A model generated the notes under the pieces. It did not search any database. It worked only from the letters and a program-made list of their open reading frames with translations, and had not been told where the DNA came from. This document shows, one piece after another, positions 17,094-61,442 of a stretch of DNA of 64,000 nucleotides (within the stretch, counting starts at the first letter, position 1; every line of letters starts with the position of its first letter). The stretch is from Bacillota bacterium. GTDB taxonomy: Bacteria; Bacillota; Clostridia; Oscillospirales; Ruminococcaceae. A program made the position numbers and the translations under genes. The DNA is taken from assembly GCA_023439835.1 (NCBI GenBank), contig JAEXUW010000013.1, positions 22,099 to 86,098 of the forward strand, in the 5' to 3' direction.

Positions 17094-17304
17094 AATGTTA
17101 CCCCACTTCTTTTTGATAAAATTATACAGCAAAAATCAGAGAATTTCAATATCAAAAAGAATAAATGTTCGGATTTTTAAAACAACAGCAATGCACATCC
17201 GTCAATATACACAAGAAAATCATAAAAGTTTGTAATATTGTATGAATTTACGCTAAGGGTATTGCAATCTCAAAATAATTGATGTAAGATGAAATTGTAA
17301 TAAA

Positions 17305-17328
17305 GAACAGCGTTCTGAAATACAGAAC
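17305..17328 (+). promoter_or_regulatory. Operator copy A (GAACAGCGTTCTGAAATACAGAAC), about 20 nt upstream of the iclR start
   Basis: Composite palindrome GAAC-N3-GTTC overlapping GTTCT-N7-AGAAC; two further copies downstream of iclR. Confidence 0.55.
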
Positions 17329-17346
17329 GCAGAACGAGGCGGCTCG

Positions 17347-18099
17347 ATGGAAGATAAAATAAAAGTTAAGTCTTTAAAAAAAGCGCTTGACATTCTCGAA
17401 TGCTTTTCGATGGAGAAATCCGAGCTTGGAATAACCGAAATCAGCTTGATGCTTGACCTTAATAAAAGCAACGTTCATAATATAATAACAACCTTTGAGG
17501 AATGCGGCTATATCGAACATAATAAAGAAAACGGAAAATATCGGCTTGGGCTAAAAATTCTTCAGCTGTCGCACATAGTTTCAAGGAGCATGAGCTTTCA
17601 GAGTATTATCAGAAAAAGCGTCAGTGCACTTTCAAAAGAGATTGATGAGATTGTTTATTTTGGTATTCCCGACGGTGAAAGCGTAATGTATATGGACGCT
17701 GAGTTCCCCGAAAGAGCATTTAACATCCGCTGGGTTCAGGGAATGACAGCACCTCTCGTCTGCACCTCTATCGGGAAGGCGATGCTCGCATATATGGACA
17801 GTGATTTTGTCAATGAAGTATTAAAAAAGCCGCTTGTCAGATACACCGAGGATACAATAATTGAGCCTGATAAAATGCGGGAAGAGCTTTTGAGGACGAG
17901 GGAAAGAGGCTTCAGCCTTGATCTTATGGAGCATGAGTATGGTGTGAAATGCGTGGGCGTTCCAGTTTTTGACCATAACAACAGGCTTATCGGCGCACTC
18001 AGCACAACAGGGCCTTCACTCAGGTTTTCTGATGATAAGCTTGAATTGTTTGCAAAGCTTTTGAAAAACAAGGCGAAGGAAATTCAACAGACTATATAA
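17347..18099 (+). CDS. IclR family transcriptional regulator
   Basis: 250 aa; N-terminal wHTH (LKKALDILECF...GITEISLMLDLNKSNVHNII) plus C-terminal IclR effector domain. Confidence 0.9.
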   Translation: MEDKIKVKSLKKALDILECFSMEKSELGITEISLMLDLNKSNVHNIITTFEECGYIEHNKENGKYRLGLKILQLSHIVSRSMSFQSIIRKSVSALSKEIDEIVYFGIPDGESVMYMDAEFPERAFNIRWVQGMTAPLVCTSIGKAMLAYMDSDFVNEVLKKPLVRYTEDTIIEPDKMREELLRTRERGFSLDLMEHEYGVKCVGVPVFDHNNRLIGALSTTGPSLRFSDDKLELFAKLLKNKAKEIQQTI

Positions 18100-18141
18100 T
18101 ATGCGGAGGGTTTACCCTCCAAATATATTAACGCTAATTCT

Positions 18142-18165
18142 GAACAGCGTTCTATAATACAGAAC
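18142..18165 (+). promoter_or_regulatory. Operator copy B (GAACAGCGTTCTATAATACAGAAC) with embedded TATAAT -10 element
   Basis: Same 24-bp motif as copy A; located in the iclR-BNR intergenic region. Confidence 0.55.
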
Positions 18166-18197
18166 GAAGCTTCTCAATATTTTTTAATTAATATCAA

Positions 18198-18221
18198 GAA
18201 CGATGTTCTATAATACAGAAC
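18198..18221 (+). promoter_or_regulatory. Operator copy C (GAACGATGTTCTATAATACAGAAC) with embedded TATAAT
   Basis: Third copy, 56 bp after copy B, about 65 nt upstream of the BNR-protein start codon. Confidence 0.55.
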
Positions 18222-18288
18222 AATTATGAAATATATAACAAATATAAATTCGCAAAATAATCAGATAATATTAGACAGGGGGATGAAA

Positions 18289-19287
18289 ATGCATCAGAAA
18301 AATTTTGTGATGAAGAAATGCCCGACTTCAATGTGCCACGCCTCAACGCTTTTGAAAACAAAGGACGGTATACTTTGCGCTTGGTTCGGCGGTTCAAAAG
18401 AGGGGAAACCAGACGTCGGAATCTGGCTGTCGTCAAACAAAGACGGAATTTGGAGCGAACCGGTTTTGTTTTCTCATGAAAATGAGGCACACTGGAACCC
18501 GGTGCTTTTCAGAACAGACACAAGCGAGATATATCTGTTTTATAAAATCGGCGAAAAAATTGACAGCTGGCGCACAATGCTTTCACACTCAAGCGACGAT
18601 GGCAAAACATGGTCAGCCCCGCATGAGCTTGTAAGTGGTGACAGAGGCGGACGAGGTCCTGTAAGAAACAAGCCGATTAGACTTTCTAGCGGAAGAATTC
18701 TGGCGCCGGCTTCATTAGAGGACGGAATATGGAGTGCCTTCGCAGATATCTCAGACGACGGGGGAAAAACATGGCGCAAAAGCGGTGAGGTTGTCATTGA
18801 GAATTTAACGGCAAGCAAAACGGAGAAAACAGTTTCTGAAAGTTCAATCCCTGTCAGCGAGCAGAGCTTTTATGGAAGAGGTGTAATTCAGCCGACATTG
18901 TGGGAAAGCTCACAGGGGAAAGCTCACATGCTTTTGAGAAGCACAGAGGGACGTATTTACAGAAGTGATTCATCAGATAATGGCGAAAGCTGGACATATG
19001 CATATCCGACGAATCTTCCAAACAATAACAGTGGCATTGATCTTGTGAGGCTTAAAAACGGTGATTTATATCTCGTTTCAAACCCTGTCGGTGAAAACTG
19101 GGGGAAAAGAAGCCCCATATCGCTTGATGTTTCAAAAGACAACGGGGCAACGTGGGAGCGTGTTTGTGACCTAGACAGCGGCGACGGCGAGTTTTCATAT
19201 CCCGCGATAATAACAGATGAGGAAAGACTTTATATAAGCTATACTTTTAAACGTGAGAATATTGCGTTTCACGAAATTATTCTTTAA
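18289..19287 (+). CDS. BNR/Asp-box repeat sialidase-like (exo-alpha-sialidase superfamily) protein, no signal peptide
   Basis: Four Asp-box repeats (SDDGKTWS, SDDGGKTWR, SDNGESWT, SKDNGATWE); start taken at MHQKNF (AGGGGG RBS, spacing 6), since the ORF-track start 18226 lies inside the operator/promoter. Confidence 0.75.
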   Translation: MHQKNFVMKKCPTSMCHASTLLKTKDGILCAWFGGSKEGKPDVGIWLSSNKDGIWSEPVLFSHENEAHWNPVLFRTDTSEIYLFYKIGEKIDSWRTMLSHSSDDGKTWSAPHELVSGDRGGRGPVRNKPIRLSSGRILAPASLEDGIWSAFADISDDGGKTWRKSGEVVIENLTASKTEKTVSESSIPVSEQSFYGRGVIQPTLWESSQGKAHMLLRSTEGRIYRSDSSDNGESWTYAYPTNLPNNNSGIDLVRLKNGDLYLVSNPVGENWGKRSPISLDVSKDNGATWERVCDLDSGDGEFSYPAIITDEERLYISYTFKRENIAFHEIIL

Positions 19288-19347
19288 GCTTCGACAAGTA
19301 TTCAGGTAACACGACAAAATATGTTATAATATATAGGAGGACAATAA

Positions 19348-20262
19348 ATGGAAAATAATTTTCCGGGCGGGGTATGGCCGGTTATGCTCACCCCCTTCAC
19401 CGCTGATAACAAGGTGGATTTTGACGGGCTGGGAAAGTTGACTGACTGGTATATTCAAAACGGTGCGTTTGGGTTATTTGCGGTTTGTCAGTCAAGCGAA
19501 ATGTTCTATCTTTCTCTTGAGGAAAGAACCGAAATTGCCGATTTTGTTGTAAAAAGAGCGGCGGGGAGAGTTCCGGTAATAGCGTCAGGGCATATTTCAG
19601 ACAGTATGGAGAATCAGGCTAAAGAACTTTGTGAAATCGCAAAAACCGGTGTTGATGCCGTTATACTTATCACAAACAGGCTTGCTAAAGAGGATGAAAG
19701 CGACGAGATATGGCTTTCAAACCTTGAAAAGCTTCTAAAGCTGATTCCAAAGGATATTAAGCTCGGTTTTTACGAGTGTCCTTATCCTTATAAAAGAGTA
19801 ATGTCAAAGGAAATGACAAAAGCGGCGGCAGAGTCGGGAAGATTTTATTTTCTAAAGGACACCTGCTGTGACATCAATCAGATTAAGGACAAGCTTTCGG
19901 TAATAAAAGGAACAAACCTAAAGCTTTATAATGCAAATACCGCTACACTCCTTGAATCATTAAGAGAAGGTGCGGCGGGGTACAGCGGAGTTATGGCAAG
20001 CTTTCAGTGCAGGCTCTACGCAAAGCTATGTGAAAAATACATGGATAAGGGGATTGAGCCGCTTTCTGATATATTGACAATAAGCGCACTAATTGAACGA
20101 CAGTATTATCCTGTGAACGCAAAGTATTACTTACAGCAAAGGGGGGTTATGAAGGAAATTGTTACACGCGTCAGGGAGGCGGACGGACTGACTGAAACCT
20201 TCAAGGAGGAAGTCAGAATGCTTTCAAGAATCACACAACAGACGGAGAAAAATTATTTATAA
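19348..20262 (+). CDS. DapA/NanA-family class I (Schiff-base) aldolase, pyruvate-releasing lyase type
   Basis: 304 aa; TIM-barrel DapA family pattern with a candidate Schiff-base Lys in FLKDTCCD (by analogy with the DapA/NanA lysine context, not verified); RBS AGGAGG. Confidence 0.8.
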   Translation: MENNFPGGVWPVMLTPFTADNKVDFDGLGKLTDWYIQNGAFGLFAVCQSSEMFYLSLEERTEIADFVVKRAAGRVPVIASGHISDSMENQAKELCEIAKTGVDAVILITNRLAKEDESDEIWLSNLEKLLKLIPKDIKLGFYECPYPYKRVMSKEMTKAAAESGRFYFLKDTCCDINQIKDKLSVIKGTNLKLYNANTATLLESLREGAAGYSGVMASFQCRLYAKLCEKYMDKGIEPLSDILTISALIERQYYPVNAKYYLQQRGVMKEIVTRVREADGLTETFKEEVRMLSRITQQTEKNYL

Positions 20263-20283
20263 TTAAACAGTGGAGGAATTAAT

Positions 20284-21261
20284 ATGAAAAAATCAATCGC
20301 AAAAAGAATACTCACCATTGCTGTTGCGGCAACAATGACATTTGCCCTTGCAGGCTGTGGAGCGAAGGATAAGGATTATCCGACAGCTAAGGATGTAACA
20401 GTAATTATTCCTAAGGCACCAGGCGGCGGAACGGATATTTCAGCAAGAGGACTTCTTCAGTATCTGAAGAATAATATTGAGGGTGCTACCTTTGTTCCCA
20501 CAAACAAGCCTGACGGCGGCGGAGTAACAGGAATGGTTGAAACCGCAAACGCTAAGGCTGACGGCTATACTCTCGGAATGGTAACCGTTGAGCTTGCAAT
20601 GTTCCCGCATCAAGACAAGACAACCTTAACATACGCTGACTTTGAAGCAATTTGTGCACCTATCGCTGCACCGGCGGCACTTGTAGTTCCGGCTGACGCA
20701 CCTTATAATTCAGTTGATGAGTTTGTCGCATACGCAAAGGCAAATCCTGATGCGCTTCAGGTTGGAAACTCAGGTATCGGCGCAATCTGGCACATCGCAG
20801 CGCTCTCATTTGAAGAGGAGTTTGATGTTTCCTTCAAGCACATTCCTTATCCTAACGGCTCAGCTGATATCGCTGCTGCCTTAGCTGGCGGACACATCGA
20901 CGCAACTATTGCTGACCCTTCAAACTTTAAAAGTCAGGTTGACGCAGGAAATCTTAAAATTTTAGCTGTTATGGCAGACGCACGTTCAAACCTTTATCCT
21001 GAAGTACCGACCTTTAAAGAGCTTGGACATGACCTTACAATCCGTGCATGGGCAGCACTTGTAGCACCTAAGGACACTCCCGCTGACGTTTTGAAAGCAC
21101 TTAGAGATGCGGCAAAGAAAACCGTTGAATCACAGGAGTTCAAGGATTATCTTCTTAATCAGGGTATCGACCCAGTTGTTATCATCGGTGAGGACTGTAA
21201 CCAAATGATGAAGGAAGACCACGAAATGTTCAAAGAAATGCTTGCTAAAGCCGGCGAGTAA
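20284..21261 (+). CDS. tctC: Tripartite tricarboxylate transporter substrate-binding lipoprotein TctC
   Basis: Lipobox LAGCGA; TctC (Bug) family periplasmic-binding fold sequence. Confidence 0.85.
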   Translation: MKKSIAKRILTIAVAATMTFALAGCGAKDKDYPTAKDVTVIIPKAPGGGTDISARGLLQYLKNNIEGATFVPTNKPDGGGVTGMVETANAKADGYTLGMVTVELAMFPHQDKTTLTYADFEAICAPIAAPAALVVPADAPYNSVDEFVAYAKANPDALQVGNSGIGAIWHIAALSFEEEFDVSFKHIPYPNGSADIAAALAGGHIDATIADPSNFKSQVDAGNLKILAVMADARSNLYPEVPTFKELGHDLTIRAWAALVAPKDTPADVLKALRDAAKKTVESQEFKDYLLNQGIDPVVIIGEDCNQMMKEDHEMFKEMLAKAGE

Positions 21262-21340
21262 TTCATAAATCAAAAACAGGATTGCGAGGGCACCGGCTCT
21301 CGCAATCTCCATATTAAAATAAAAAGGAAGGAGCAAGCTT

Positions 21341-21811
21341 ATGGGCAACATGAAAAAATGCAACTATATCATTTCGGGAATATCGGCAATTCTCGGTATA
21401 ATAATAATGTTCTTGTCACAAAAACTGTCCATAGATTTTACAAAGCACGGTCCCGGTGCCGGATTCTGGCCCTTTATACTCGGAATAATAATGACTGCAG
21501 TTTCTGTCATTCTGTTTATAGCGACCGTAATAAACAAAAAAAAGCTCGAAGAAATCCCTGTCGTCTTAAATTCACACGGCAACAAAAAGGTCTATATCAT
21601 GATGGGGGTAATAACTGGCTTCTGCGTTTTGTTGCCCGTAATAGGCTTTTATCTTTCAATGCTTCTCTTTCTTCCTCTAAATATGCTTGTTTTGGGAATG
21701 AAAAGCAAGAAGAAAATTGCGATTTTCACAGTGATAATTCTAGTGATGGTATATGTTGTTTTTGAAATGCTTTTAAAAACAGTGATGCCAAAGCCATTTT
21801 TCATGGAATAG
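21341..21811 (+). CDS. tctB: Tripartite tricarboxylate transporter small membrane subunit TctB
   Basis: 156 aa, four TM helices, DUF1468-like; between tctC and tctA. Confidence 0.75.
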   Translation: MGNMKKCNYIISGISAILGIIIMFLSQKLSIDFTKHGPGAGFWPFILGIIMTAVSVILFIATVINKKKLEEIPVVLNSHGNKKVYIMMGVITGFCVLLPVIGFYLSMLLFLPLNMLVLGMKSKKKIAIFTVIILVMVYVVFEMLLKTVMPKPFFME

Positions 21812-21824
21812 GAGGGGGAACTTT

Positions 21825-23339
21825 ATGAATGATGTTATAACGGCGCTTGGTCAAATCTTTCAGCTTTCAAATATAATAGCGCTTGTTTTCGGCACAGCCG
21901 CGGGAATACTTATCGGCGCCCTCCCCGGATTATCGGTTAATATGGGAATAGCACTGCTGTTTCCGCTCACCTTCACACTTGAGGGTATCGGCGGAATAAT
22001 AATGCTGCTCGGAATATACTGCGGCGCCATATACGGCGGCTCAATATCGGCGATTTTGTTAAAAACCCCCGGCACTCCCGCATCGGCGGCGACAACCCTT
22101 GACGGCTACCCTATGGCTGTGAAATACGGTCAGCCGGGGCGTGCGCTCGGGCTTTCGACCTTCGGCAGTATGTTCGGCGGAGTTTTCAGCACAATTTGTC
22201 TTATTCTTCTCGCGCCACAGCTCGCAAAAATAGCACTTCAGTTTTCAAAGCCCGAATACTTTGCGCTGGCTATTTTTGGAATAAGCATTATTACAAGCGT
22301 TTCGTCAGGCTCTGTTTTAAAAGGCTTGATAGGCGGGCTTATCGGTCTTTTCATTTCAACAATCGGAATAGACGCAATGAGCGGAAAAATCCGCTTCACG
22401 TTTGGGACAACCTATCTTTTAGGCGGAATATCATTTATTCCGATTCTAATCGGGCTGTTTGCCTTCTCACAGGTTTTGACAACTCTCGAAGAAAGCTTCT
22501 CAGAGCAGAAAACAGAAAAGAAGAATATAAAAATCGATCGTGTTTTGCCGACATGGTCAGATTTAAAAAGATGTATGGTAACGCTCTTTCGTTCATCCTT
22601 TATAGGGACATTTATCGGGTGCATACCCGGAACAGGCGGAGATATATCGTCCTTTATCGCATACGATCAGGCTAAACGCTGGTCAAAGCATAAAGACAAT
22701 TTCGGAAACGGTGAGCCGGAGGGGATTGTTGCACCCGAAGCGGGGAACAACTCAGTTTCGGGCGGTGCGTTTATCCCAGTGCTGACGCTGGGAATCCCCG
22801 GTGACGGTGCGACAGCGATAATGCTGGGCGCATTGATGGTTAAGGGAATTCAGCCCGGACCGCTTCTTTTCACAAATCAAGCTTCAAGCGTGTATTCAAT
22901 TTTCATCGGGCTTATGCTCGCAAATTTAGTTATGGGGCTTTTCGGCTTTTCTCTAATCAGACTTTTTGTCAAGGTTATAAATGTTCCAAAGCAAATACTT
23001 CTTCCGGTAATATTCACGCTCACCTTTGTGGGTGCGTACTCCTACAACAAATCGCTAAACGACGTTTATGTGATGGTCGCCGCGGGCTTTTTAGGCTATT
23101 TTTTAAGCAAGATGCAGTTTTCAATGTCTGCGGTCATTATCGGTATAATTCTGGGCGGAATGGCGGAGGCTAATTTCACAGGCTCGCTTATCATGAGTGA
23201 CGGAAAGCTCTCGGTATTCTTCTCACGTCCGATAAGCGCAACGTTCCTCACAATAGCAATACTCAGCCTCTTGTCACCGATTTTCAAGCCGCTTTTCAAA
23301 AAAATATTTAAGTCAAGAAGCAAAGCACAGGCTTCTTAG
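21825..23339 (+). CDS. tctA: Tripartite tricarboxylate transporter large permease TctA
   Basis: 504 aa polytopic membrane protein with TctA family repeats. Confidence 0.9.
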   Translation: MNDVITALGQIFQLSNIIALVFGTAAGILIGALPGLSVNMGIALLFPLTFTLEGIGGIIMLLGIYCGAIYGGSISAILLKTPGTPASAATTLDGYPMAVKYGQPGRALGLSTFGSMFGGVFSTICLILLAPQLAKIALQFSKPEYFALAIFGISIITSVSSGSVLKGLIGGLIGLFISTIGIDAMSGKIRFTFGTTYLLGGISFIPILIGLFAFSQVLTTLEESFSEQKTEKKNIKIDRVLPTWSDLKRCMVTLFRSSFIGTFIGCIPGTGGDISSFIAYDQAKRWSKHKDNFGNGEPEGIVAPEAGNNSVSGGAFIPVLTLGIPGDGATAIMLGALMVKGIQPGPLLFTNQASSVYSIFIGLMLANLVMGLFGFSLIRLFVKVINVPKQILLPVIFTLTFVGAYSYNKSLNDVYVMVAAGFLGYFLSKMQFSMSAVIIGIILGGMAEANFTGSLIMSDGKLSVFFSRPISATFLTIAILSLLSPIFKPLFKKIFKSRSKAQAS

Positions 23340-23348
23340 GAGGAGAAA

Positions 23349-25109
23349 ATGAATTATCCTAAAATAGGAATTAGACCCATTATCGATGGCAGACGCTTAG
23401 GAATAAGAGAAAGCCTTGAAGAAAAAACTATGAGCATGGCAAATGCCGCAAAAAAGCTTATTGAAAGCAATGTCTTTTATGCCGACAAAACGCCAGTTCA
23501 ATGCGTTATATCACCCTGCACAATAGGCGGAGGAGCGGAAGCGGCAAAATGCGCCGAATTCTTCTCAACACAAAATGTATGTGCAACACTTTCGGTTACC
23601 CCCTGCTGGTGCTATGGAAGTGAAACGATGGATATTGACCCCTCAACAATTAAAGCTGTGTGGGGTTTTAACGGAACACAGCGTCCGGGCGCTGTTTATC
23701 TTGCGGCGGTTATGTCGGCACATGAGCAGAGGGGACTGCCTGCATTTTCAATCTACGGCAAAGACGTTCAAGACCTTGAGGACAATTCAATTCCAACCGA
23801 CGTTTCAGAAAAAATCCTGCGCTTTGCACGCTGTGCGGCGGCAGTGGGACAGATTAAGAGCAGAGCATATATAAATATAGGAAGCGTTTCAATGGGAATA
23901 GCCGGCTCTGACTGCAACGCTGAATTTATACAGAAATATCTGGGGCTTCGTGCCGAATGGGTTGATATGACTGAGGTTTTGAGAAGAATCAAGCTTGGTA
24001 TTTTCGATGAAGCCGAATTTGAAAAGGCTCTTAACTGGACAAGGGAGAATTGTAAGGAGGGCTTTGACAAAAACTCCTCACCCCACACTCGTGAGGAAAA
24101 GGACGCCGAGTGGGAATTTGTTGTCAAGCTCACGCTAATATGCCGTGATATTATGCTCGGAAACGAAAAGCTCGCTGACAAGGGCTTCGATGAAGAAGCA
24201 CTTGGCAGAAACGGTATATGCGGCGGCTTTCAAGGACAGAGAATGTGGTCGGACTGGCAGCCTAACGGGGATTTCACAGAGGCGATATTAAACTCAACCT
24301 TTGACTGGAACGGAAAAAGACAGCCTGTTGTTTTTGCGACCGAAAACGACGGCTTAAACGGACTTTCAATGCTGTTCGGGCATCTTGTTACAAATGCGGC
24401 AAGCGTTTTTGCAGACGTGAGAACCTATTGGAGTCCCGAAGCTGTCGAAAGGGTTACCGGCGAAAAGCTGACGGGAATCGCCGAAAACGGCTTCATTCAC
24501 CTTATCAATTCCGGCTCGGCGGCACTTGATGCCTGCGGCGAGGTCAAGGACGAAAACGGAAACGCTGTGATGAAACGCTGGTGGGATATGACTGATGATG
24601 ATATTTCAGCCTGTCTTAAAGCAACCGACTGGTGCCCCGCCGACCTTTCATATTTCAGAGGTGGCGGCTTCTCGTCACACTTCAATACAATGGCACAAAT
24701 GCCTGTCACAATGACAAGATTAAATTTAATTTCAGGGCTTGGACCTGTTTTGCAGATTGCGGAAGGGTATACGGTTGTGCTCCCCGAAAAGGTTCACAAG
24801 GCGCTTGAGCAGAGAACAGACCCCACATGGCCGACGACCTGGTTTGTTCCCCGCCTGACAGGAAAGGGAGCTTTCAGGGATGTTTATTCTGTGATGGCAA
24901 ACTGGGGCGCAAATCACGGCAGCTTTAATTTCGGGCATATCGGAAAGGACTTAATCACGCTGGCGTCAATGCTGAGAATTCCCGTATCACTTCACAATGT
25001 TGACGAGGGAGATATATTCCGCCCTCACGCTTGGGCGGCATTCGGCACAGACGGGATTGAGGCGGCGGATTACCGCGCGTGTCAGACCTATGGTGCATTA
25101 TACAGATAA
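23349..25109 (+). CDS. fucI: L-fucose/D-arabinose isomerase (FucI family)
   Basis: 586 aa; near-colinear with E. coli FucI ([58 protein letters not shown]). Confidence 0.9.
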
Positions 25110-25126
25110 TTTTCGGAGGGAAATGA

Positions 25127-26806
25127 ATGAAACGCTATACTATCGGGCTTGATTACGGGACTCTGTCGGTCAGGGCTTTGCTTCTCGACATTGAAACGGG
25201 CGAGGAGGTTTTGACGTCAGTTTATGACTATCCGCACGGTGTAATGGAAAAAAACCTTCACGACGGGACTGCTCTTGGCGAGGCATGGGCTTTACAGCAC
25301 CCGCAGGATTATATTGACGGCTTTTGTGAAACTGTACGTGAGCTTCTTGAAAAAACTGAAATTTCACCCGAAAGTATTATCGGCATCGGTGTTGACTTCA
25401 CCTCCTGCACTATTCTTCCCACAAAAAAAGACGGCACACCGCTTTGTCTTATTGAGGAGTACAAAAGCGTTCCTCATTCATATGTCAAGCTGTGGAAGCA
25501 CCATAGTGCACAGTACTGCGCCGATATTCTAAATGAAACAGCCGAGAAAATGAACGAGCCGTGGCTTGCACTCTACGGCGGAAAGATTTCAAGCGAATGG
25601 CTTGTTCCAAAGGCGATGCAGATTGCAAAGGAAGCGCCCGACATTTATAAAGCCGCCGAGCGTATAATCGAAGCCGGCGACTGGCTTGTCTGGCGGCTGA
25701 CGGGGAACGAGGCAAGAAGTGCGTGCAACGCTGGCTATAAAGCGTTATATCACCATAAAAACGGCTATCCGTCAAAGGAATTTTTCAAAGCGCTTGACCC
25801 TTTGCTTGAAAATATCGTTCTTGAAAAGCTTTCAACTGACATTAAACCTCTCGGCTCTTGTGCGGGCTTTCTAACAAAGGAAATGGCTGAGAAATCAGGG
25901 CTTTGTGAGGGGACGGCGGTTGCTGTCGGAATAATCGACGCTCATGCCTCCGTTCCCGCCTGCAGAATTGACGGACCGGGGAAAATGCTCATGATTATGG
26001 GCACCTCAACCTGTCACATGCTGCTTTCCGAAAAGGAAATGGGTGTGAGCGGAACCTGCGGCATTGTCAAGGACGGGATTCTTCCAGGCTCATTCGGATA
26101 TGAGGCGGGGCAAAGCTGTGTTGGCGACCATTTTTCGTGGTTTGTTGATTATTGCTGTCCGCCAGAATACAAGGACGAGGCAAAGGAAAAGGGAATTTCA
26201 ATTCACAGGCTTTTGGGCGAGAAGGCGGCGCTTAAAAAGCCGGGCGAGAGCGGACTTCTAGCGCTCGACTGGTTCAACGGTGTCAGAAGCGACCTCATGG
26301 ATTTTGACCTCTCGGGGCTTATTATGGGGATGACACTGCTTACCCGTCCGGAGGATATTTACCGTGCGCTGATTGAAGCTACGGCTTTCGGCACAAGGCA
26401 GATTATAGAAGCCTTTGAAAAGGGCGGGGTTTTTGTTGATGAGCTTTATGCTGCCGGCGGTATAGCCGAAAAGGACGCTTTCACTATGCAACTTTACGCT
26501 GATATCTGCAACAAAACCATAAAAATTTCTGGGAGTGCACAGTCGGGTGCTTTGGGAAGTGCTATTTTCGGAATAGGTGCGGCGGGGACAGAAAAAAGCG
26601 GTTATAAAAACGTTAATGAAGCAGCATTAAAGCTTGGGAAAATCAAGGACATTGTCTATACTCCTATTCCTGAAAATGCTAAGGTTTATGAGGAGCTTTT
26701 CGCAGAGTATGTACTCTTGCACGATTATTTCGGAAAAGGTCAAAATGATGTTATGAAACGACTTCGCAAAATTAAGCTGATTCAAAAAGGGGACAGTGCA
26801 AAATGA
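25127..26806 (+). CDS. FGGY-family carbohydrate kinase, ribulokinase (AraB)-like
   Basis: 559 aa; N-terminus [23 protein letters not shown] closely resembles AraB (IGLDFGSDSVRAL); FGGY N and C domains. Confidence 0.85.
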
Positions 26807-27261
26807 TTATTACAAATCTTGAGCTTTGCTCAGAGTATAAAAAGCTGATTCCCGACATAAATAAAGCCGTCAGAACCATTAAAGGGCTGACTGAATTCAA
26901 GGTTGGACGCTATGAAACAAACTTTGGCTTCTATATGCTTCAGGAGGGGGAAACCCGTCCGCTCAAAGAAGCGCTTTTTGAAACCCATAATAAATATATT
27001 GACATTCAGTATATTTATGAGGGGGAAGAGGTTGTCGAATGGGCGGACAGAGCGTGTTGTTTAATTGCTGTTTTGCACGACGATGAAAAGGACATTGCCT
27101 TTTTCACAGCACAGGAAAAGGACACAATTCGCTTCACAGCAAAAAAAGGAATGTGCTATATTGTTTTTCCGAATGATGCACACAAGCCCTGCTGTCACAT
27201 TGACGAGCCCACACAATATAAAAAGGTTGTGTTCAAGCTTGAGCATTCAGAAACAGTATGA
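26803..27261 (+). CDS. YhcH/YjgK/YiaL family protein (DUF386; sugar-acid anomerase/mutarotase-like, NanQ family)
   Basis: 152 aa; conserved blocks [28 protein letters not shown] matching E. coli YhcH. Confidence 0.8.
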
Positions 27262-27265
27262 CTGT

Positions 27266-27300
27266 GACCGCAGGGGGGCTTCCTCCTGCGGTTTTAATAT
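27266..27300 (+). terminator. Rho-independent terminator ending the IclR-regulated cluster
   Basis: ccgcagg ggggcttcct cctgcgg followed by TTTTAAT. Confidence 0.7.
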
Positions 27301-42277: not shown

Positions 42278-44098
42278 CTATTCAACAGTAACGGACTTAG
42301 CGAGATTTCTCGGCTTGTCAACATCACAGCCTCTTAATACGGCGGTGTAATAAGCCATAAGCTGAAGCGGGACAACAGACAGCATCGGCATAAGCATATC
42401 GTTAATGCTCGGAAGCTCGATTTTATAATCGGCTACATCACTTTCGATTCTTGCATTTTCGTGACAGATGAGGATAACCTGTGCGCCCCTTGCCTTGACC
42501 TCTTTAATGTTGCTGATTGTTTTCTCAAAAAGCTCAGTCTGGGTTGCTACCGCGATAACAGGCATGCCCTCGGTAATAAGCGATATTGTTCCATGCTTTA
42601 ATTCGCCGGCGGCATAAGCCTCAGAATGTATATATGAAATTTCCTTGAGCTTTAAAGAGCCTTCCATACTCATTGCATAGTCTAGTCCTCTTCCTATATA
42701 AAGAAGGCTGTCGGCATTGACAAGCTTTGAGGAGATAAACTGTATGTTGGTTTTTTCTTCAAGGAGGTTTTCGATAACATTCGCTGAGTTTAAAAGCTCG
42801 GCTGTGAGCTTTTCACATTCCTCAAGTGAAAGCTTTCCCTTTATAAGCCCAAGCCTGAACGCAAGCATATACATTGTCGCAATTTGAACGGAATAAGCCT
42901 TTGTGGAGGCAACAGCAATTTCAAGGCCGGCATATGTATATATGACCATATCGGCGGCACGTGCAATTGACGAGCCGACAACATTAACCACGGCGAGTGT
43001 TTTTGCGCCATGCTGCTTTGCAAGCTTCAAAGCGGCAAGACTGTCGGCGGTTTCGCCTGACTGTGAAATGATTATCACTAAATCCCTGTCTGTGATAATC
43101 GGGTTTCTATATCTGAATTCAGACGCTATATCAACGATAACCGGAATACGCACAAGCTTTTCTATCACATACTTTCCGACGATTCCGGCGTGCATAGCCG
43201 TACCGCAGGCAACAATAAAGATATTATCAAACTTCAAAAGCATATCGTCGTCAAGCCCCGCCTGTGAAAAATCAGGAACACCATTTTTGATTCTGGGCTT
43301 GATTGTGTTCTTGATTGAACAGGGCTGTTCATGAATTTCTTTTAGCATGAAATGCTCATAGCCACATTTCTCAGCGGCTTCAAGGTCCCACGTTGCGGTC
43401 TGAACCTCTTTCTCGATTTCGAGCTTATGCATATCATAGAACTTAATTCCGCCATTGTCCAAAACCGCAATTTCGTCACTTTCAAGAAGATAATAATCAC
43501 GGGTATACTTTAAAATTGCGGGAACGTCAGAGGCGATGAAGCTGTCATCACCGGCTGTTCCGACAATAAGCGGGGATTCTTTTCTGACAGCAAAAACGGT
43601 ATTTTCATAGTCCTTGAAGATAATTCCCAGTGCGAATGAGCCACGAACCTCACCCATCATGCGGATTATAGCATCAAGAGGGTCGCCTTTATAATAATAA
43701 TCAAGCAGAGAAGCAACAGTTTCTGTATCGGTTTGAGTGAGAAATTCATAGCCGTTTTCAGTTAAAAACTGCTTAATCTCCATATAATTTTCGATTATTC
43801 CGTTGTGGACAAGGGTGACATTTGCATTGCCGTGAGGGTGAGCGTTGACGTCAGAGGGTTCACCGTGCGTTGCCCAGCGAGTGTGGCCTATTCCGCAGAT
43901 TCCTTTGGGGGCGCCCTCATTTTTCAGCTTGTCGGCGAGATTTTGAAGCTTCCCTCTTGTTTTAACCGTTTTAATGGTGCTGTCAGAAAAAACAGCTATT
44001 CCGGCGGAGTCATAGCCCCTGTATTCAAGCTTAGACAGCCCGTCAAGTAAAATTTGTGTACAGTCCTTCTTGCCGACATAGCCGACTATTCCGCACAT
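42278..44098 (-). CDS. glmS: Glutamine--fructose-6-phosphate aminotransferase (isomerising)
   Basis: 606 aa; MCGIVGY N-terminal nucleophile; two SIS domains. Confidence 0.95.
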   Translation of the reverse strand: MCGIVGYVGKKDCTQILLDGLSKLEYRGYDSAGIAVFSDSTIKTVKTRGKLQNLADKLKNEGAPKGICGIGHTRWATHGEPSDVNAHPHGNANVTLVHNGIIENYMEIKQFLTENGYEFLTQTDTETVASLLDYYYKGDPLDAIIRMMGEVRGSFALGIIFKDYENTVFAVRKESPLIVGTAGDDSFIASDVPAILKYTRDYYLLESDEIAVLDNGGIKFYDMHKLEIEKEVQTATWDLEAAEKCGYEHFMLKEIHEQPCSIKNTIKPRIKNGVPDFSQAGLDDDMLLKFDNIFIVACGTAMHAGIVGKYVIEKLVRIPVIVDIASEFRYRNPIITDRDLVIIISQSGETADSLAALKLAKQHGAKTLAVVNVVGSSIARAADMVIYTYAGLEIAVASTKAYSVQIATMYMLAFRLGLIKGKLSLEECEKLTAELLNSANVIENLLEEKTNIQFISSKLVNADSLLYIGRGLDYAMSMEGSLKLKEISYIHSEAYAAGELKHGTISLITEGMPVIAVATQTELFEKTISNIKEVKARGAQVILICHENARIESDVADYKIELPSINDMLMPMLSVVPLQLMAYYTAVLRGCDVDKPRNLAKSVTVE

Positions 44099-46950: not shown

Positions 46951-48621
46951 TTAGAAAAGCCCTGAAATGTTCCCGAAATTATCGCAGTCGATTTTTTCAG
47001 CGGCAGGCAGCTTTGGAAGCCCCGGCATAGTCATAATATCTCCGGTCATTGCAACGACAAAGCCTGCTCCCGCCGAGAGCCTGACATCACGGACGGTTAT
47101 TTCAAAATTATTCGGCTTTCCGAGCTTTGAAGGGTCGTCAGAAAGCGAATACTGTGTTTTTGCAACACATACAGGGATTTTATCAAAGCCCAGCTCATTT
47201 ATTTCCTTAATTGCTTTCTCAGCCTGAGCGGTGAAAACCACGCCGCTTGCACGATAAATTTCTTTTGCGATAATATTAAGCTTTTCTTTTATGGGAAGCC
47301 TTTCGTCATACAAGGGCTTAAAGCATGATTCGCATTTTTCGATTGCTTCACAAACCTTAAAGGCAAGGTCTTTTCCGCCGTCGCCGCCCTTAGCGAATAT
47401 TTCGGTAAGAGAAACGCTCACTCTCATATTCTCACAAAACTGCTGAATGAATTCTATTTCAGCGTCACTGTCGGTGTGAAAGCGGTTGATTGCAACCACA
47501 ACAGGCACGCCAAATTTCTGCATATTTTCAATGTGCGTTTGAAGATTGACAATGCCTTTCTTGAGAGCGTCAAGATTTTCTGCCGCAAGGTCAGCCTTTA
47601 AAACGCCGCCGTTATATTTCAAAGCACGAATTGTTGCGACAAGCACAACGCAGTCGGGCTTCAGTCCGGCAAAGCGACATTTTATATCAAAAAACTTTTC
47701 TGCTCCAAGGTCCGAGCCAAAGCCGGCTTCGGTAATAGTATAATCCCCCAGCTTTAGCGCAAGCTTAGTCGCTCGAACTGAATTACAGCCGTGTGCAATA
47801 TTGGCAAAGGGTCCGCCGTGCATTATCGCAGGAGTATTTTCAAGCGTCTGAACAAGGTTCGGCTTTAAAGCGTCCTTTAAAAGTGCGGTCATTGCGCCGC
47901 AGCCGCCTAAATCCTTGGCGAATACCGGCTTGTTATCAAAGGTATAAGCCACAAGAATTCGTTCAAGCCTTGCTTTTAGGTCCTCAAGATCAGCGGCAAG
48001 ACAAAGTATCGCCATAACCTCTGAGGCAACGGTGATGTTGAAGCCATCCTCACGGGGAATGCCGTTTAGCTTTCCGCCTAAGCCGACAATAATATTGCGA
48101 AGGGCACGGTCGTTCATATCCATACAGCGCTTGAACATTATTCGACGAGAATCAATATTCAGCAAATTACCCTGCTGAATATGATTGTCAATTAAAGCAC
48201 AAAGCAGATTATTCGCCGAGGTGATAGCATGCATATCTCCCGTGAAGTGAAGATTAATATCCTCCATCGGGACAACCTGAGAATAGCCGCCGCCTGCCGC
48301 ACCGCCCTTGATTCCAAAAACAGGGCCGAGCGACGGCTCACGAAGCGCAAGCACTGCCTTCTTTCCGATTTTAGCCATCGCCTGAGAAAGCCCGACGCTC
48401 ATTGTGGTTTTGCCCTCTCCCGCAGGGGTGGGGTTAATTGCGGTGACTAAAATCAGCTTTCCATCGGGGCGGCATTCAAGCTTTGAAAAAAGACCCTCCG
48501 ACAGCTTAGCTTTATAATGCCCATAAGGCTCCAAATCATCCTCTGAAATATCAAGTCCGGCGGCGATTTCGCTAATTTTTTTCATATTACAGCTTTGTGC
48601 GATTTCGATATCGGTTAACAT
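46951..48621 (-). CDS. fhs: Formate--tetrahydrofolate ligase
   Basis: Conserved [18 protein letters not shown]; start at [10 protein letters not shown] with RBS GGAGGGG. Confidence 0.95.
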
Positions 48622-48812
48622 ACAACCCCTCCAAAAAACAATGTCGTGAATCAAAAATACTAAAATATATTATATCACAGCTTAAATTATTTTTCCATAC
48701 TTATTAGCATAAAATAAGCTTGTCGGTGAATATTTACATAGATAAATATTGCGTTTCGGCAAAAGCTGTTATATAATTATCATATTAAGTCGAAATTTAA
48801 GGAGGGAAAAGC

Positions 48813-52821: not shown

Positions 52822-53589
52822 ATGCTGAAAAAATACAGGTCGGCGCTTTGGTTTCAAAAAAGAGTAATTATCGGCGCTGTTTTACTTTGTTTGATTTTGA
52901 TAGCACAACAAGCGATTTATTATCTTAGAATTAAGTCAGGCGCTATTGTTGACGTTCAGACTTATGAGGGGCTAATGAAATGGTTCTGCGTGGGTATAAT
53001 TGCAGGAACTTTTGGAATGACATTCAGGTTTTTACTGGGGATGGGAGTATCGAGAAGGGTAGCGGTGCTTTCTAACATAACCATAATAATTCTTGTGAGT
53101 TTGATTCTTGCTTTGGGGAATGTGCTGATTCTTAGGTTTTTTATAGGGCAGTATGATTCTATTCTTTATATAGCCACTGAGAACACTTATATCTCCGAAA
53201 AAATCGATGCTATTCAATTTAGTATTTATCGCCATGAAATATCCGAAAATGGTGCGTTTAGGGGTGTCATCGCTGAAATGTTCGCATGGAGCTTTAGCAT
53301 GATGATGATGTTTGCGTCAATTGCTTATGCGGTGAGGGCTATTGTATACCGACTAAGCGCAAGGGGAAGAAAGCTGTTTTTTGCATTAATGGCAGCACTT
53401 GTGTTACTTATACCGAGCAGCCTTTATCTGTTAAGCAGAAAAACCGATGCAATAAGCAAAGCGATCAGCTATCTTTTGCTTGAGGAGCCTCTTCGGTCAT
53501 CGGTTTCATTTACAGTGATAGCGATAATTATGTTCACAACGGCGTATCTTCTCATTCGGCGTGCACCGCTTAAATATAAAGAGGAATAA
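52822..53589 (+). CDS. Membrane protein paralog 2
   Basis: 255 aa; MLKKYRSALWFQ...; C-terminal 58 aa near-identical to paralog 3. Confidence 0.6.
   Translation: MLKKYRSALWFQKRVIIGAVLLCLILIAQQAIYYLRIKSGAIVDVQTYEGLMKWFCVGIIAGTFGMTFRFLLGMGVSRRVAVLSNITIIILVSLILALGNVLILRFFIGQYDSILYIATENTYISEKIDAIQFSIYRHEISENGAFRGVIAEMFAWSFSMMMMFASIAYAVRAIVYRLSARGRKLFFALMAALVLLIPSSLYLLSRKTDAISKAISYLLLEEPLRSSVSFTVIAIIMFTTAYLLIRRAPLKYKEE
53415..53589 (+). repeat. 3' segment about 97% identical to 54290-54463 (gene-end duplication or gene conversion)
   Basis: Direct comparison of the two sequence stretches: 4-5 mismatches over about 175 bp. Confidence 0.8.
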
Positions 53590-53701: not shown

Positions 53702-54463
53702 ATGCTAAAAAAATACAAGACGGCAGTGTGGTATCAATATTGGCATATATTAGCTGTGCTCGCATTATGCATTTATATTGTTTTAGAAAGAGTGATAGAG
53801 TATAACACTATTCATCATGTAGTTAACAGACGCTATGAATTATTTATGTCATTAATGCTGGGGGCTATCATACTTTTTACTTTTGGGAAGACCTTTAGGT
53901 TGATGATGGGGATGGGCGTTTCAAGAAAGACCACGTTTGCTTCTCAGCTGACGGTGATTATACTCGTAGGCTTGCTGTTTTCCGCGTTTAGAACACTAGA
54001 TTTTATTATAGAATTAAGATTAGATTTAATCAAATATAGGGATTTATATAATGCTCATAAATCTTCAACATCTTTTATGACAGAGCTATATATAGGAAGC
54101 AAAAAAGAGTATGTCTATTCATTAGAAACACTGGATGTCATCGCACGAGATATGTTTTTGTGGTGCTTTAGCATGATTATGATGTATGCGGCAATAGCTT
54201 ATGCGGTGAGAATTTTTATTTACGGCTTAAGCTCAAAGGGGAAGAAACGGTTTTTCGCTTCATTGGCGGCGATAGTGATATTTGTCCCTAGCAGCCTTTA
54301 TCTGTTAAGCAGAAAAACTGATGCAATAAGCAAAGCGATCAGCTATCTTTTGCTTGAGGATGCTCTTCGGTCATCGGTTTCATTTACAGTTATAGCGATA
54401 ATTATGTTCACAACGGCATATCTTCTCATTCGGCGTGCACCGCTTAAATATAAAGAGGAATAA
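53702..54463 (+). CDS. Membrane protein paralog 3 (tandem duplicate)
   Basis: 253 aa; MLKKYKTAVWYQ...; the 60 bp upstream of its start duplicates the end of gene 52074-52808 plus RBS. Confidence 0.6.
   Translation: MLKKYKTAVWYQYWHILAVLALCIYIVLERVIEYNTIHHVVNRRYELFMSLMLGAIILFTFGKTFRLMMGMGVSRKTTFASQLTVIILVGLLFSAFRTLDFIIELRLDLIKYRDLYNAHKSSTSFMTELYIGSKKEYVYSLETLDVIARDMFLWCFSMIMMYAAIAYAVRIFIYGLSSKGKKRFFASLAAIVIFVPSSLYLLSRKTDAISKAISYLLLEDALRSSVSFTVIAIIMFTTAYLLIRRAPLKYKEE
54290..54463 (+). repeat. Second copy of the near-identical gene 3' segment
   Basis: See 53415-53589. Confidence 0.8.
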
Positions 54464-56287: not shown

Positions 56288-56300
56288 TCCTGTAAAAAAT

Positions 56301-57644: not shown

Positions 57645-57670
57645 GCTGCCTCCTTTCATTACGCTAAAAG

Positions 57671-58243
57671 TTAAATATTTCTGCCGGCTTCAAAGGCTTT
57701 TTTGTTAAGCTCTAAAAATTTAGGGGGGACGCACTCGGCAATCGATTCATTCCAAAACTTTATATCAAAATCAAGAAGCTTTGAAACGACGCCCATTATA
57801 ACCACATTAGAGGCTTTGGGATTCCCCAGCGCTTCAGCCTTTTCAAGCGCATTGACGGCAATAATGTCAATACCCAGTGTTTTTATTTTATCAACAATTC
57901 CCTCAGGATATACCGCAGCGCCGGTAATAACGGGCATAGGGTCGGTCTTCTGTGTCGAAACAATGAGCTTTCCGTCATTTTTCAAATACGGTATCCATCT
58001 TGCGGCTTCAAGCTGTTCAAAAGCGATGATTAAATCAGCTTCGCCCTTTTCGATAACAGGCGATGAAACGCTGTCACCGTATTTTACATAGGTCACGACA
58101 GAGCCGCCACGCTGTGACATTCCGTGAACCTCAGAAACCTTAACGTCCACACCCTGTGAAAGAATGACGTGCCCCATCAGCTTTGAGGCGAGAAGTGAGC
58201 CTTGACCGCCGACACCGACAATCATAATTGATTTTGTGTTCAT
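57671..58243 (-). CDS. iorB: Indolepyruvate:ferredoxin oxidoreductase beta subunit
   Basis: 190 aa; IVGVGGQG gamma-domain motif. Confidence 0.9.
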   Translation of the reverse strand: MNTKSIMIVGVGGQGSLLASKLMGHVILSQGVDVKVSEVHGMSQRGGSVVTYVKYGDSVSSPVIEKGEADLIIAFEQLEAARWIPYLKNDGKLIVSTQKTDPMPVITGAAVYPEGIVDKIKTLGIDIIAVNALEKAEALGNPKASNVVIMGVVSKLLDFDIKFWNESIAECVPPKFLELNKKAFEAGRNI

Positions 58244-61421: not shown

Positions 61422-61442
61422 AATAGTGAAACAAACACTAAA

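Follow-up and report, generated by a model that had tools for sequence, protein, structure and literature searches.

Which compound would be handled by a gene set that combines a sialidase-fold protein, a DHDPS/NanA-family aldolase and a TctCBA transporter with pentose enzymes? The question is raised by nine co-directional genes, all complete, at positions 17347-27261 on the + strand of the window, that is, the whole stretch of 64,000 nucleotides analysed. The iclR gene comes first and is followed by an eight-gene operon (sialidase-fold protein, aldolase, TctCBA, FucI, ribulokinase and YhcH) with gaps of -4 to 79 nt between genes. We propose, with moderate confidence, that this repressor-controlled operon of a fibre-degrading Clostridia bacterium imports Kdo, splits it to pyruvate and D-arabinose and feeds central metabolism. 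A preliminary description of this DNA had counted ten genes; we count nine, the neighbours being unrelated (DUF5131 and LDH on the - strand at the left, an ABC-2 exporter at the right), and every gene it had named was found on the + strand, complete and in the same order. It had also pointed to the lack of NanK/NanE and FucK/FucA, and indeed neither these nor AraA/AraD, NagA and NagB were present in the cluster, in its +/-10 kb flanks or among the 19 ORFs of at least 250 aa that were scanned farther out.

The regulator and the signals that surround the operon are the following.

17312..17328, no strand: operator-like palindrome GTTCTGAAATACAGAAC, copy 1, 19 nt upstream of iclR
17347..18099, + strand: IclR-family transcriptional regulator, 250 aa (HTH_IclR 53.6 bits, IclR_C 121.5 bits)
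18105..18120, + strand: short hairpin GGAGGGTTTACCCTCC after iclR (dG -12.6 kcal/mol, z -4.1)
18149..18165, no strand: operator-like palindrome GTTCTATAATACAGAAC, copy 2, with a TATAAT hexamer inside at 18153-18158
18205..18221, no strand: operator-like palindrome GTTCTATAATACAGAAC, copy 3, with TATAAT at 18209-18214, immediately ahead of the operon
27266..27297, + strand: intrinsic terminator after YhcH, a 12-bp G+C-rich stem (27266-27293) followed by UUUU

The 17-bp palindrome GTTCT-N7-AGAAC has three sites in the 64 kb, against 0.06 expected by chance, and these lie before iclR and before the operon. The same palindrome precedes iclR in loci L001, L007, L010, L013, L016, L018 and L019, and in many loci the element is conserved before iclR, before the aldolase gene (or the first gene of the operon) and before fucI. 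The regulator, which scores below every equivalog cut-off (PcaR/KdgR/BhcR-like), would bind the three palindromes (two of them overlapping TATAAT hexamers) and would presumably be released by the sugar acid; copy 1 is a probable autoregulation site. The cluster had been described as bounded by terminators, and this stands at the 3' side, where the 27266-27293 stem folds with a dG of -22.9 kcal/mol (z -4.49; equal folding in 0 of 200 shuffles). At the 5' side it does not: the element at 17310-17330 was rejected as a terminator, as it is one of the three palindrome copies, and is better read as a predicted IclR operator. The hairpin after iclR has no U-tract and would thus serve as no more than a weak terminator or insulator.

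The operon itself holds eight genes.

18289..19287 (longest ORF from 18226), + strand: BNR_2 sialidase-fold protein, predicted Kdo-glycoside hydrolase
19348..20262, + strand: class I (Schiff-base) pyruvate aldolase of the DHDPS/NAL family, predicted Kdo aldolase (DHDPS 78.6 bits)
20284..21261, + strand: TctC-type solute-binding lipoprotein with lipobox LAGC (TctC 187.7 bits)
21341..21811, + strand: TctB small membrane subunit (67.4 bits)
21825..23339, + strand: TctA large membrane subunit (534 bits)
23349..25109, + strand: L-fucose/D-arabinose isomerase FucI (NCBIfam equivalog 1016 bits, cut-off 775)
25127..26806, + strand: FGGY ribulokinase of the AraB type (equivalog 716 bits, cut-off 428)
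26803..27261, + strand: YhcH/DUF386 protein (DUF386 116.6 bits)

The aldolase scores far under the DapA, NanA, KdgD and HpaI equivalog cut-offs. In the alignment, its K170 corresponds to K161 of DHDPS, Y142 to Y133 and S49/S50 to T44/T45, with the Schiff-base Lys and the catalytic Tyr retained and Pro at the position of DHDPS R138; the predicted structure is a TIM barrel (pLDDT 94.7) with 16-24% identity to any solved structure. Around it we found a tight subfamily with the motifs FAVCQSSE and YECPYPYK in at least 596 species, whose members are 52-77% identical and come from Clostridia, Paenibacillus, Succinivibrionaceae, Spirochaetes and some Bacteroidales. Judged by its sequences, this is a new, uncharacterised subfamily within DHDPS/NAL.

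Synteny was compared at 79 loci of subfamily relatives, with pentose genes sought within 10 kb. The BNR gene adjoins the aldolase gene in 31-32 of them, and natural BNR-aldolase fusion proteins occur in both orders, each with both sets of family motifs. A pentose module adjoins the aldolase in 20 of the 79 loci, FucI/AraB in 14 and PfkB + SIS in 6, and no locus of the 79 carries both; FucI adjoins the aldolase family in 12-13 other loci. The alternative module consists of a ribokinase-like PfkB kinase (293 bits on the ribokinase model), a KdsD-like arabinose-5-P isomerase (the KpsF/KdsD/GutQ-like SIS protein, with 132, 115 and 110 bits vs 53 for the next family) and an RbsD-type pyranase. D-arabinose is the one aldose that we could identify as being taken to D-ribulose-5-P by both modules; since D-arabinose would be their common substrate, and pyruvate plus D-arabinose amounts to Kdo, the modules support the Kdo reading. 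Pentose-linked loci are scattered across the whole aldolase tree, and about 75% of the aldolase loci have no pentose gene within 10 kb. In Caproicibacter (L001), the nine-gene set recurs with its order shuffled. The preliminary description had proposed a route from an ulosonic acid to pyruvate and D-arabinose, then D-ribulose and ribulose-5-P, and the comparative loci, fusions, modules and L001 point the same way.

From the gene content, families, folds, catalytic Lys and Tyr, operator repeats, terminator, synteny counts and fusions, which are directly established, we infer all substrates, the sign of the regulation and the origin of Kdo as follows. Uptake would be through TctCBA, with the lipoprotein TctC as receptor, and the cargo would be Kdo itself or, with greater likelihood, a small anionic glycoside or derivative of Kdo; the three subunits each exceed the Pfam gathering scores, and the closest solved relative of TctC is 4X9T (6e-52), an uncharacterised TTT binding protein with no assigned ligand. 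The cytoplasmic sialidase-fold enzyme would liberate Kdo from the imported compound, and the YhcH protein, a predicted ulosonate (Kdo) anomerase, would accelerate the interconversion of anomers or ring forms. YhcH matches solved DUF386 chains, with 9JRR as the best (5e-13) and the Haemophilus HI0227 YhcH structure 1JOP next, and reaches 71 bits on the NanQ anomerase equivalog, below the cut-off of 160. The aldolase would then break the C3-C4 bond of Kdo to give pyruvate and D-arabinose, the latter of which FucI is predicted to convert to D-ribulose and the AraB-type kinase to D-ribulose-5-phosphate. As this product enters the pentose-phosphate pathway directly, neither an epimerase nor a second aldolase would be needed. 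Kdo could come from side chain C of pectin RG-II, possibly as Kdo released by Bacteroides, or from LPS or capsule debris.

The hydrolase step is where the Kdo reading meets some difficulty. The BNR protein is a six-bladed beta-propeller with the GH33-sialidase fold and four Asp boxes; the most likely start of its gene is ATG 18289, preceded by the RBS AGGGGG, and this start yields 332 aa, in agreement with the length of homologues, and no signal peptide. Its homologues are cytoplasmic in all phyla examined. A sialidase-like fold and a cytoplasmic location had also been reported earlier. The catalytic centre differs from that of true sialidases: by sequence alignment rather than superposition, His replaces the first Arg of the sialidase triad and Gln the Glu partner of the Tyr nucleophile. 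With these substitutions the protein is not a canonical sialidase, and it may therefore not be a simple glycosidase. Because the hydrolase is cytoplasmic, the compound brought in by Tct is probably a glycoside or derivative of Kdo, either in place of free Kdo or in addition to it, and this implied glycoside import counts against the Kdo reading. To our knowledge, it is unprecedented for TTT transporters. Kdo, an eight-carbon sugar acid, is a monocarboxylate, whereas the familiar ligands of TTT systems carry two or three carboxylates.

Such cargo would suit the other ulosonic acid of RG-II, Dha (3-deoxy-D-lyxo-hept-2-ulosaric acid), on which the cluster might act alone or along with Kdo, although we regard this as unlikely. 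In this case the di- or tricarboxylate would enter through Tct, the BNR protein would act as a Dha hydrolase, and cleavage by the aldolase would yield pyruvate and a four-carbon uronic aldehyde. Dha and Kdo have an identical C4-C6 configuration. A fusion of BNR_2 with a GH127-like domain hints at Dha, as it mirrors the make-up of BT1020, in which a GH143 Dha hydrolase is joined to a GH142 beta-L-arabinofuranosidase, and one aldolase clade is paired with a 2-hydroxyacid dehydrogenase, which could process the aldehyde-acid, rather than with pentose genes. This clade implies that the aldolase family may not be isofunctional; some members may act on Dha, and in one clade the substrate may be another acid, for instance Dha. 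A second rival takes the aldolase to cleave another 2-keto-3-deoxy acid, or the cluster to be a mosaic of an L-fucose/L-arabinose remnant and a carboxylate transporter with no single pathway. FucI and AraB do pass the L-fucose isomerase and L-ribulokinase equivalog cut-offs, and many aldolase loci have very different neighbours (for example GH38) or no partners, an abundant Lachnospiraceae member being a stand-alone gene; but the single operon, with one terminator and one operator set, the missing FucK, FucA, AraA and AraD, the fusions and the recurrence of the shuffled nine genes in L001 make it very improbable. We likewise give very little credence to a sialic-acid-type locus (Neu5Ac, KDN or another nonulosonic acid) beside an unrelated FucI/AraB module, a reading suggested by the sialidase fold, by the database name 'sialidase family protein' for the BNR protein, by the presence of YhcH in the E. 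coli nan operon and by the weak match of the aldolase N-terminus to NanA models. That match gives 35-41 bits vs cut-offs of 281-382 and is limited to residues 8-109; NanK, NanE, NagA and NagB are absent from the regions scanned, the sialidase Arg and Glu are substituted, and across phyla the aldolase is accompanied by pentose genes in two versions that exclude each other, which is not expected from chance juxtaposition.

Under the Kdo reading, the operon resembles nan systems in its GH33-fold hydrolase, DUF386 protein, dedicated carboxylate transporter and local repressor, and in a class I DHDPS/NAL aldolase that would split a 3-deoxy-2-ulosonic acid into pyruvate and an aldose. It differs from them in its cytoplasmic hydrolase with a His/Gln-substituted centre, an aldolase and YhcH below the NanA and NanQ cut-offs, pentose enzymes in place of NanK and NanE, a TTT system instead of NanT, TRAP or ABC, and IclR instead of NanR. 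Its three transporter subunits are those of TctCBA for citrate, TphC for terephthalate and BugD/BugE, but here a sugar acid, or a glycoside of it, is predicted as cargo. For D-arabinose, E. coli B employs FucI and then D-ribulokinase, with D-ribulose-5-P as end product as proposed here, and K-12 employs FucI/FucK/FucA; D-ribulose is also phosphorylated by E. coli AraB. Unlike the E. coli route, the kinase here is an AraB-type FGGY protein, the pentose would arise from intracellular aldol cleavage, and some related loci would use kinase-first chemistry, PfkB and then a KdsD-like isomerase.

The reaction that the operon requires, Kdo to pyruvate and D-arabinose, is a described activity (PMC10619137, PMC12199768), and as of 2023 no E. 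coli gene was annotated for Kdo aldolase (PMC10619137). We found neither a gene assignment for Kdo aldolase, known there as an activity alone, nor a gene-level Kdo catabolic pathway in the searchable literature, which leaves subscription journals mostly outside, and the novelty claimed earlier for the Kdo route agrees with that literature. If true, the operon would supply the genes for an enzyme activity that has been known since 1966 and is without an assigned gene in these searchable sources. KdoH1/KdoH2 of Helicobacter pylori and Francisella, a Kdo hydrolase of lipid A remodelling, is likewise sialidase-like and takes off a Kdo residue (PMC3573668); this two-protein enzyme is membrane-associated and remodels the LPS of the cell that produces it, whereas the operon hydrolase is soluble and would be catabolic, together with an aldolase. 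Bacteroides thetaiotaomicron secretes D-Kdo from RG-II, the consumers being 'not confirmed' (bioRxiv 10.64898/2026.03.13.711244, a 2026 preprint); its RG-II PUL enzymes BT1013 and BT1020 differ from the operon in being periplasmic, with Kdo secreted instead of catabolised. Partners of the aldolase at other loci include oligosaccharide ABC importers, a GH4 and a protein of 1043 aa that is weakly and partially similar to GH106 alpha-L-rhamnosidases. Such partners would fit Rha-Kdo-GalA fragments of RG-II, and they echo BT1013, in which a GH78 rhamnosidase and a Kdo hydrolase are fused (PMC13501991).

The cluster on the forward strand at 17347-27261 consists of nine complete co-directional genes, one fewer than the ten counted in the preliminary description, which had rightly called it colinear, and the gene identities are concordant between Pfam and NCBIfam. 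The same gene set came from a gene call made independently on a public contig that codes for the identical aldolase protein, and its neighbours there are unrelated: on the left LDH and DUF5131, on the opposite strand, and on the right an ABC-2 exporter. From the gene of the sialidase-like BNR protein onward the intergenic gaps are -4 to 79 nt, such that these genes are taken to form a single operon. The genes and signals are listed in order.

17312, 19 nt 5' of iclR: palindrome copy 1
iclR: IclR regulator with HTH_IclR and IclR_C domains
18149 and 18205, 5' of the BNR gene: palindrome copies 2 and 3
18289-19287 (+): BNR_2 sialidase-like protein (256 bits)
19348-20262 (+): DHDPS-family aldolase (PF00701, 78.6 bits; far under the curated DapA, NanA, KdgD and HpaI cut-offs)
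tctC, tctB and tctA, encoded together: tripartite tricarboxylate transporter, TTT (PF03401, 187.7; PF07331, 67.4; PF01970, 534.3 bits; all above the gathering scores)
fucI: isomerase with three FucI domains (NF008220, 1015.9 against a cut-off of 775; TIGR01089, 963 against 850)
araB: ribulokinase, FGGY kinase (NF003154, 716 against a cut-off of 428; TIGR01234, 706 against 583)
yhcH: YhcH/DUF386 protein (DUF386, 116.6 bits; NanQ anomerase model NF040884, 71.3 against a cut-off of 160)
27266-27293, 3' of yhcH: intrinsic terminator (dG -22.9 kcal/mol, z -4.5, followed by UUUU)

The BNR reading frame most likely starts at the ATG at 18289, behind the RBS AGGGGG, which gives a product of 332 aa, a length like that of its homologues. 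A 135-aa ORF at 21358-21765 (+) lies in another frame wholly within tctB; it is arginine-rich and of low complexity, and in all likelihood a shadow ORF due to chance.

Three copies of the 17-bp palindrome GTTCT-N7-AGAAC are present in the 64-kb window, all of them in this region, against 0.06 copies expected by chance. The repeats lie in the promoters of both the regulator gene and its target, and the regulator has the two domains of an IclR repressor; we propose them as the predicted IclR operator. The operon-proximal copies read GTTCTATAATACAGAAC, and because they contain TATAAT we infer that the repressor may cover the -10 element. The same palindrome stands just 5' of iclR and of the aldolase gene or the first operon gene in the related loci L001, L007, L010, L013, L016, L018 and L019, and likewise in Paenibacillus L063 and L064 and in Succinatimonas L024. 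Terminators had been proposed on both sides of the cluster: the one 3' of yhcH is real, whereas the upstream one is the first of the proposed operator palindromes. A terminator scan had flagged this palindrome as well and had overlooked the real terminator, because its T-run has only four T's; folding settled the matter.

The cluster resembles a nan-like ulosonic-acid operon. NanK and NanE, FucK and FucA, and AraA and AraD are all absent from the cluster, its 10-kb flanks on either side and the remaining window ORFs of at least 250 aa, these last annotated by Pfam scans; for the Nan and Fuc pairs this agrees with what had been noticed before. The lack of AraA and AraD fits a kinase acting on D-ribulose rather than L-ribulose. 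By equivalog, the isomerase is an L-fucose isomerase FucI, whose predicted role here is to turn D-arabinose into D-ribulose. As to YhcH, the protein belongs to the DUF386 family but falls short of the NanQ equivalog cut-off, and from these scores it is classed as a NanQ paralogue, not an orthologue.

The TIM barrel, Schiff-base Lys, catalytic Tyr and Ser pair place the aldolase among the class I pyruvate aldolases of the DHDPS/NAL superfamily. K170, Y142 and S49-S50, all invariant, correspond in the alignment to K161, Y133 and T44-T45 of DHDPS. An AF2 model (pLDDT 94.7) gave a TIM barrel with TM 0.82-0.87 to DHDPS and NAL structures; DHDPS, NAL and YagE are all about equally distant from it, with 16-24% identity. 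Curated scores and residues rule out both DapA and NanA. The DapA equivalog TIGR00674 scored 68.7 against a cut-off of 206, and in the alignment to P. aeruginosa DHDPS a Pro (in ECPYPY) occupies the position of the substrate-binding Arg138 (the Arg of NVPGRT). The NanA models NF003164 (40.7 against 281) and TIGR00683 (35.1 against 382) matched only residues 8-109, reaching no further than the N-terminal third of the protein. Counted from the Schiff-base Lys, the segment at the sialic-acid-binding GxDE region is YNAN, not the GYDE which we take to be that of NanA.

The subfamily is defined by the motifs FAVCQSSE, YECPYPYK and FLKDT(C/S)CD, with a mean column identity of 72%, and is labelled in the databases only as "dihydrodipicolinate synthase family protein". 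When one genome per species was scanned, the subfamily turned up in at least 596 species, among them Lachnospiraceae, Oscillospiraceae, Ruminiclostridium, Paenibacillus/Cohnella, Succinivibrionaceae and Spirochaetes, together with one Gastranaerophilales MAG and a few Bacteroidales. The closest homologues come from an Oscillospiraceae MAG (aldolase 77% identity, BNR 75%). From its genomic context we predict the protein to be a Kdo aldolase.

The BNR protein has the six-bladed beta-propeller with Asp-box repeats of the GH33 fold. Its residues were assigned by sequence alignment to S. pneumoniae NanA sialidase and the P. gingivalis sialidase, not by superposition. The nucleophilic Tyr is conserved (GEFSYPA, aligned with GEFAYNS of NanA), but its Glu partner (NTESTVV in NanA) aligns with an invariant Gln in VIQPT, leaving the GH33 pair of Tyr nucleophile and Glu incomplete. 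The arginine triad also appears to lack its first member, since the position of the RIP motif reads C-H-A-S and all 34 homologues have this His; the second Arg is retained (LLRS, aligned with the FMRG of NanA), and the third (GKRSP) was assigned by spacing and invariance only. In the same alignment the general acid/base Asp of sialidases, in the ADRR segment on the loop behind the first strand, faces a Gly in WFGGS, with an invariant Glu and Asp 4-8 residues later. Thus, of the catalytic residues to be checked, the Tyr and the second Arg stood, and the RIP Arg and the Glu did not; on this alignment the protein is a GH33-like enzyme with an altered centre rather than a sialidase proper.

None of 31 BNR homologues has a signal peptide, the Gram-negative Succinivibrionaceae included, which rules out a secreted sialidase and bears out the cytoplasmic location first proposed. 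The protein is therefore expected to work in the cytoplasm on the cargo of the adjacent transporter, and that cargo would be a glycoside or derivative of Kdo rather than free Kdo alone. This step of cytoplasmic hydrolysis is the weakest part of the model.

We then compared the best 79 loci with an aldolase homologue, clustering and annotating all ORFs in 10-kb flanks. A BNR gene lies beside the aldolase gene in 31-32 of the 79, and natural fusions exist both ways round among public metagenome proteins, BNR-aldolase in P0255 and aldolase-BNR in P0316, each with the motifs of both families. Since the two are adjacent in so many loci and fused in both orders, they are expected to act successively on one molecule, in the manner of sialidase and NanA. 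The fusion partners of BNR_2 in P0255, P0316, P0259, P0272 and P0350 comprise the DHDPS-type aldolase, a PF12831 FAD-dependent oxidoreductase, and GH127-like and melibiase-like domains. The PF12831 enzyme also replaces BNR in L007, L010, L016 and L019 and adjoins it in L033.

A pentose module is adjacent to the aldolase gene in 20 of the 79 loci, in two forms that never occur together: FucI and/or AraB (14 loci), or a ribokinase-like PfkB kinase with a single-domain SIS protein and an RbsD/FucU pyranase (6 loci). The top matches of the SIS protein are arabinose-5-phosphate isomerases (KpsF 132, KdsD 115 and GutQ 110 bits; next family 53). As predicted from these families, the first form would lead from aldose to ketose to ketose-5-phosphate, and the second from aldose to aldose-5-phosphate to ketose-5-phosphate. 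D-Arabinose is the only aldose identified that fits both the FucI isomerisation and the KdsD-type conversion of the 5-phosphate; both routes then end at D-ribulose-5-phosphate, and pyruvate plus D-arabinose make up Kdo. The case for Kdo as the substrate is strongest on this point of non-orthologous displacement, and the same logic explains the presence of AraB without AraA and AraD and of FucI without FucK and FucA. Loci with a pentose module occur throughout the aldolase tree, on its Succinivibrionaceae, Clostridia and Paenibacillus branches, and all nine genes recur, in a changed order, in Caproicibacter L001. About three quarters of the aldolase loci have no pentose gene within 10 kb, and in Lachnospiraceae a very common family member occurs as a stand-alone gene. 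Xylose genes by L043 and ascorbate PTS genes by L005 were judged to belong to neighbouring operons outside the system.

TctCBA is present in 9 of the 79 loci and invariably adjoins BNR. In other loci an oligosaccharide-type ABC importer stands in its place, often with a GH4 or a GH106-like protein of about 1043 aa, and these partners are compatible with fragments of side chain C of pectin RG-II (Rha-Kdo-GalA). The association of the GH106-like protein with BNR and aldolase loci recalls BT1013, a rhamnosidase fused to a Kdo hydrolase (PMC13501991). The 1043-aa protein was found at L025:6721-9972 and in nine further loci by tblastn, and in 17 by ORF clustering, adjoining BNR and/or the aldolase. 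It has no Pfam domain and matches GH106 alpha-L-rhamnosidases weakly and in part (BT4145 model 1.7e-8, PDB 6Q2F 1.4e-4); it may represent a new glycoside hydrolase family.

The proposal that a Kdo-type acid is converted to pyruvate and D-arabinose and on to ribulose-5-phosphate is thus backed by comparative evidence independent of the first reading, and from the genes as they stand we regard Kdo catabolism as the probable function of the operon. A Kdo glycoside would enter through the TTT transporter and be hydrolysed in the cytoplasm by a new GH33-like Kdo hydrolase whose catalytic centre carries the His and Gln changes; Kdo would then undergo aldol cleavage, and D-arabinose would reach ribulose-5-phosphate by either of the two interchangeable routes. 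We reject a role in sialic-acid metabolism because of the scores, the residues and the lack of NanK and NanE among the window ORFs covered, and a chance mosaic because of the single operon structure, the recurrence of the genes in shuffled order and the fusions. Dha is the other ulosonic acid of RG-II, and there are hints that part of the aldolase family handles it, as one aldolase clade is paired with a 2-hydroxyacid dehydrogenase and one BNR fusion carries a GH127-like domain; however, Dha as the substrate would leave the FucI and AraB of the window unexplained, which Kdo accounts for. In the clade concerned (L022, L023, L025, L026, L028, L036, L042 and L051), a D-2-hydroxyacid dehydrogenase always follows the aldolase, pentose genes are lacking, and the 1043-aa protein and a transporter of TRAP or ABC type are often present; this branch may serve another ulosonic acid, Dha for example.

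Kdo aldolase (EC 4.1.2.23) splits Kdo into pyruvate and D-arabinose, and papers of 2023 and 2025 state that the endogenous enzyme of E. coli is still un-annotated (PMC10619137, PMC12199768). Within the searchable full-text literature, which takes in few subscription journals, no Kdo catabolic pathway or Kdo aldolase gene is described; an earlier description may exist elsewhere. That the FAVCQSSE/YECPYPYK subfamily supplies the Kdo aldolase gene, and the operon the first genetically defined Kdo catabolic pathway, is in our judgement an evenly balanced proposition. If true, it would give a sequence to an orphan EC number, add to the substrates handled by TTT transporters and by sialidase-fold proteins, and provide a rationale for KdsD-like arabinose-5-phosphate isomerases in Gram-positive bacteria that make no LPS; the aldolase might also be used in chemo-enzymatic synthesis of Kdo analogues. 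Nearly all Gram-negative outer membranes contain Kdo, as do, within RG-II, all plant primary walls. Free D-Kdo is released by B. thetaiotaomicron and Flavobacterium growing on RG-II, and Kdo is listed among the RG-II products secreted by Bacteroides whose consumers are unconfirmed (bioRxiv 10.64898/2026.03.13.711244). Clostridia of gut, rumen and soil, Paenibacillus and Succinivibrionaceae could then feed on Kdo from RG-II via Bacteroides, or from LPS and capsules, which would be a new cross-feeding link in these communities.

Several related loci depart from this arrangement. In Paenibacillus L037, L046 and L058, one or two BNR_2 + Big_2 proteins (731 aa) are encoded next to the aldolase, a GH38 and an ABC importer. 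Their Big_2 domain suggests an extracellular location, in which case the species may release ulosonic acid outside the cell too; the GH38 has no explanation in the RG-II model. L024, L027, L031 and L032, from Succinivibrionaceae and a Bacteroidaceae contig, have TRAP DctPQM and a second aldolase, of the class II HpcH/GarL type, behind the first, with TctCBA-BNR-FucI divergent, giving two transporters and two aldolases per locus. L002 and L003 (Lachnoclostridium phytofermentans and a MAG) have a YdjC-like protein, a BadF-type ATPase and a GH4 directly 5' of BNR and aldolase; L. phytofermentans is a cultured, genetically studied fermenter of plant biomass.

Elsewhere in the window, a GH5 cellulase carrying the cellulose-binding module CBM2 (733-2640, -) indicates that the host is a plant-fibre degrader. 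A formate-tetrahydrofolate ligase (46951-48654, -; 915 bits) and a GlmS-type amidotransferase (42278-44098, -) are ordinary housekeeping genes. The ORFs at 52822-53589 and 53702-54463 (+) and at 56301-57659 (-), of 253-452 aa, had no Pfam match at E <=1e-5. The run at 54974-62969 (-) encodes two PaaK-like AMP-binding ligases (PF14535), a 452-aa ORF, a 2-oxoacid/indolepyruvate:ferredoxin oxidoreductase-like protein (Fer4) and a sodium:solute symporter, and by its gene content looks like an aryl-pyruvate/arylacetate fermentation module.
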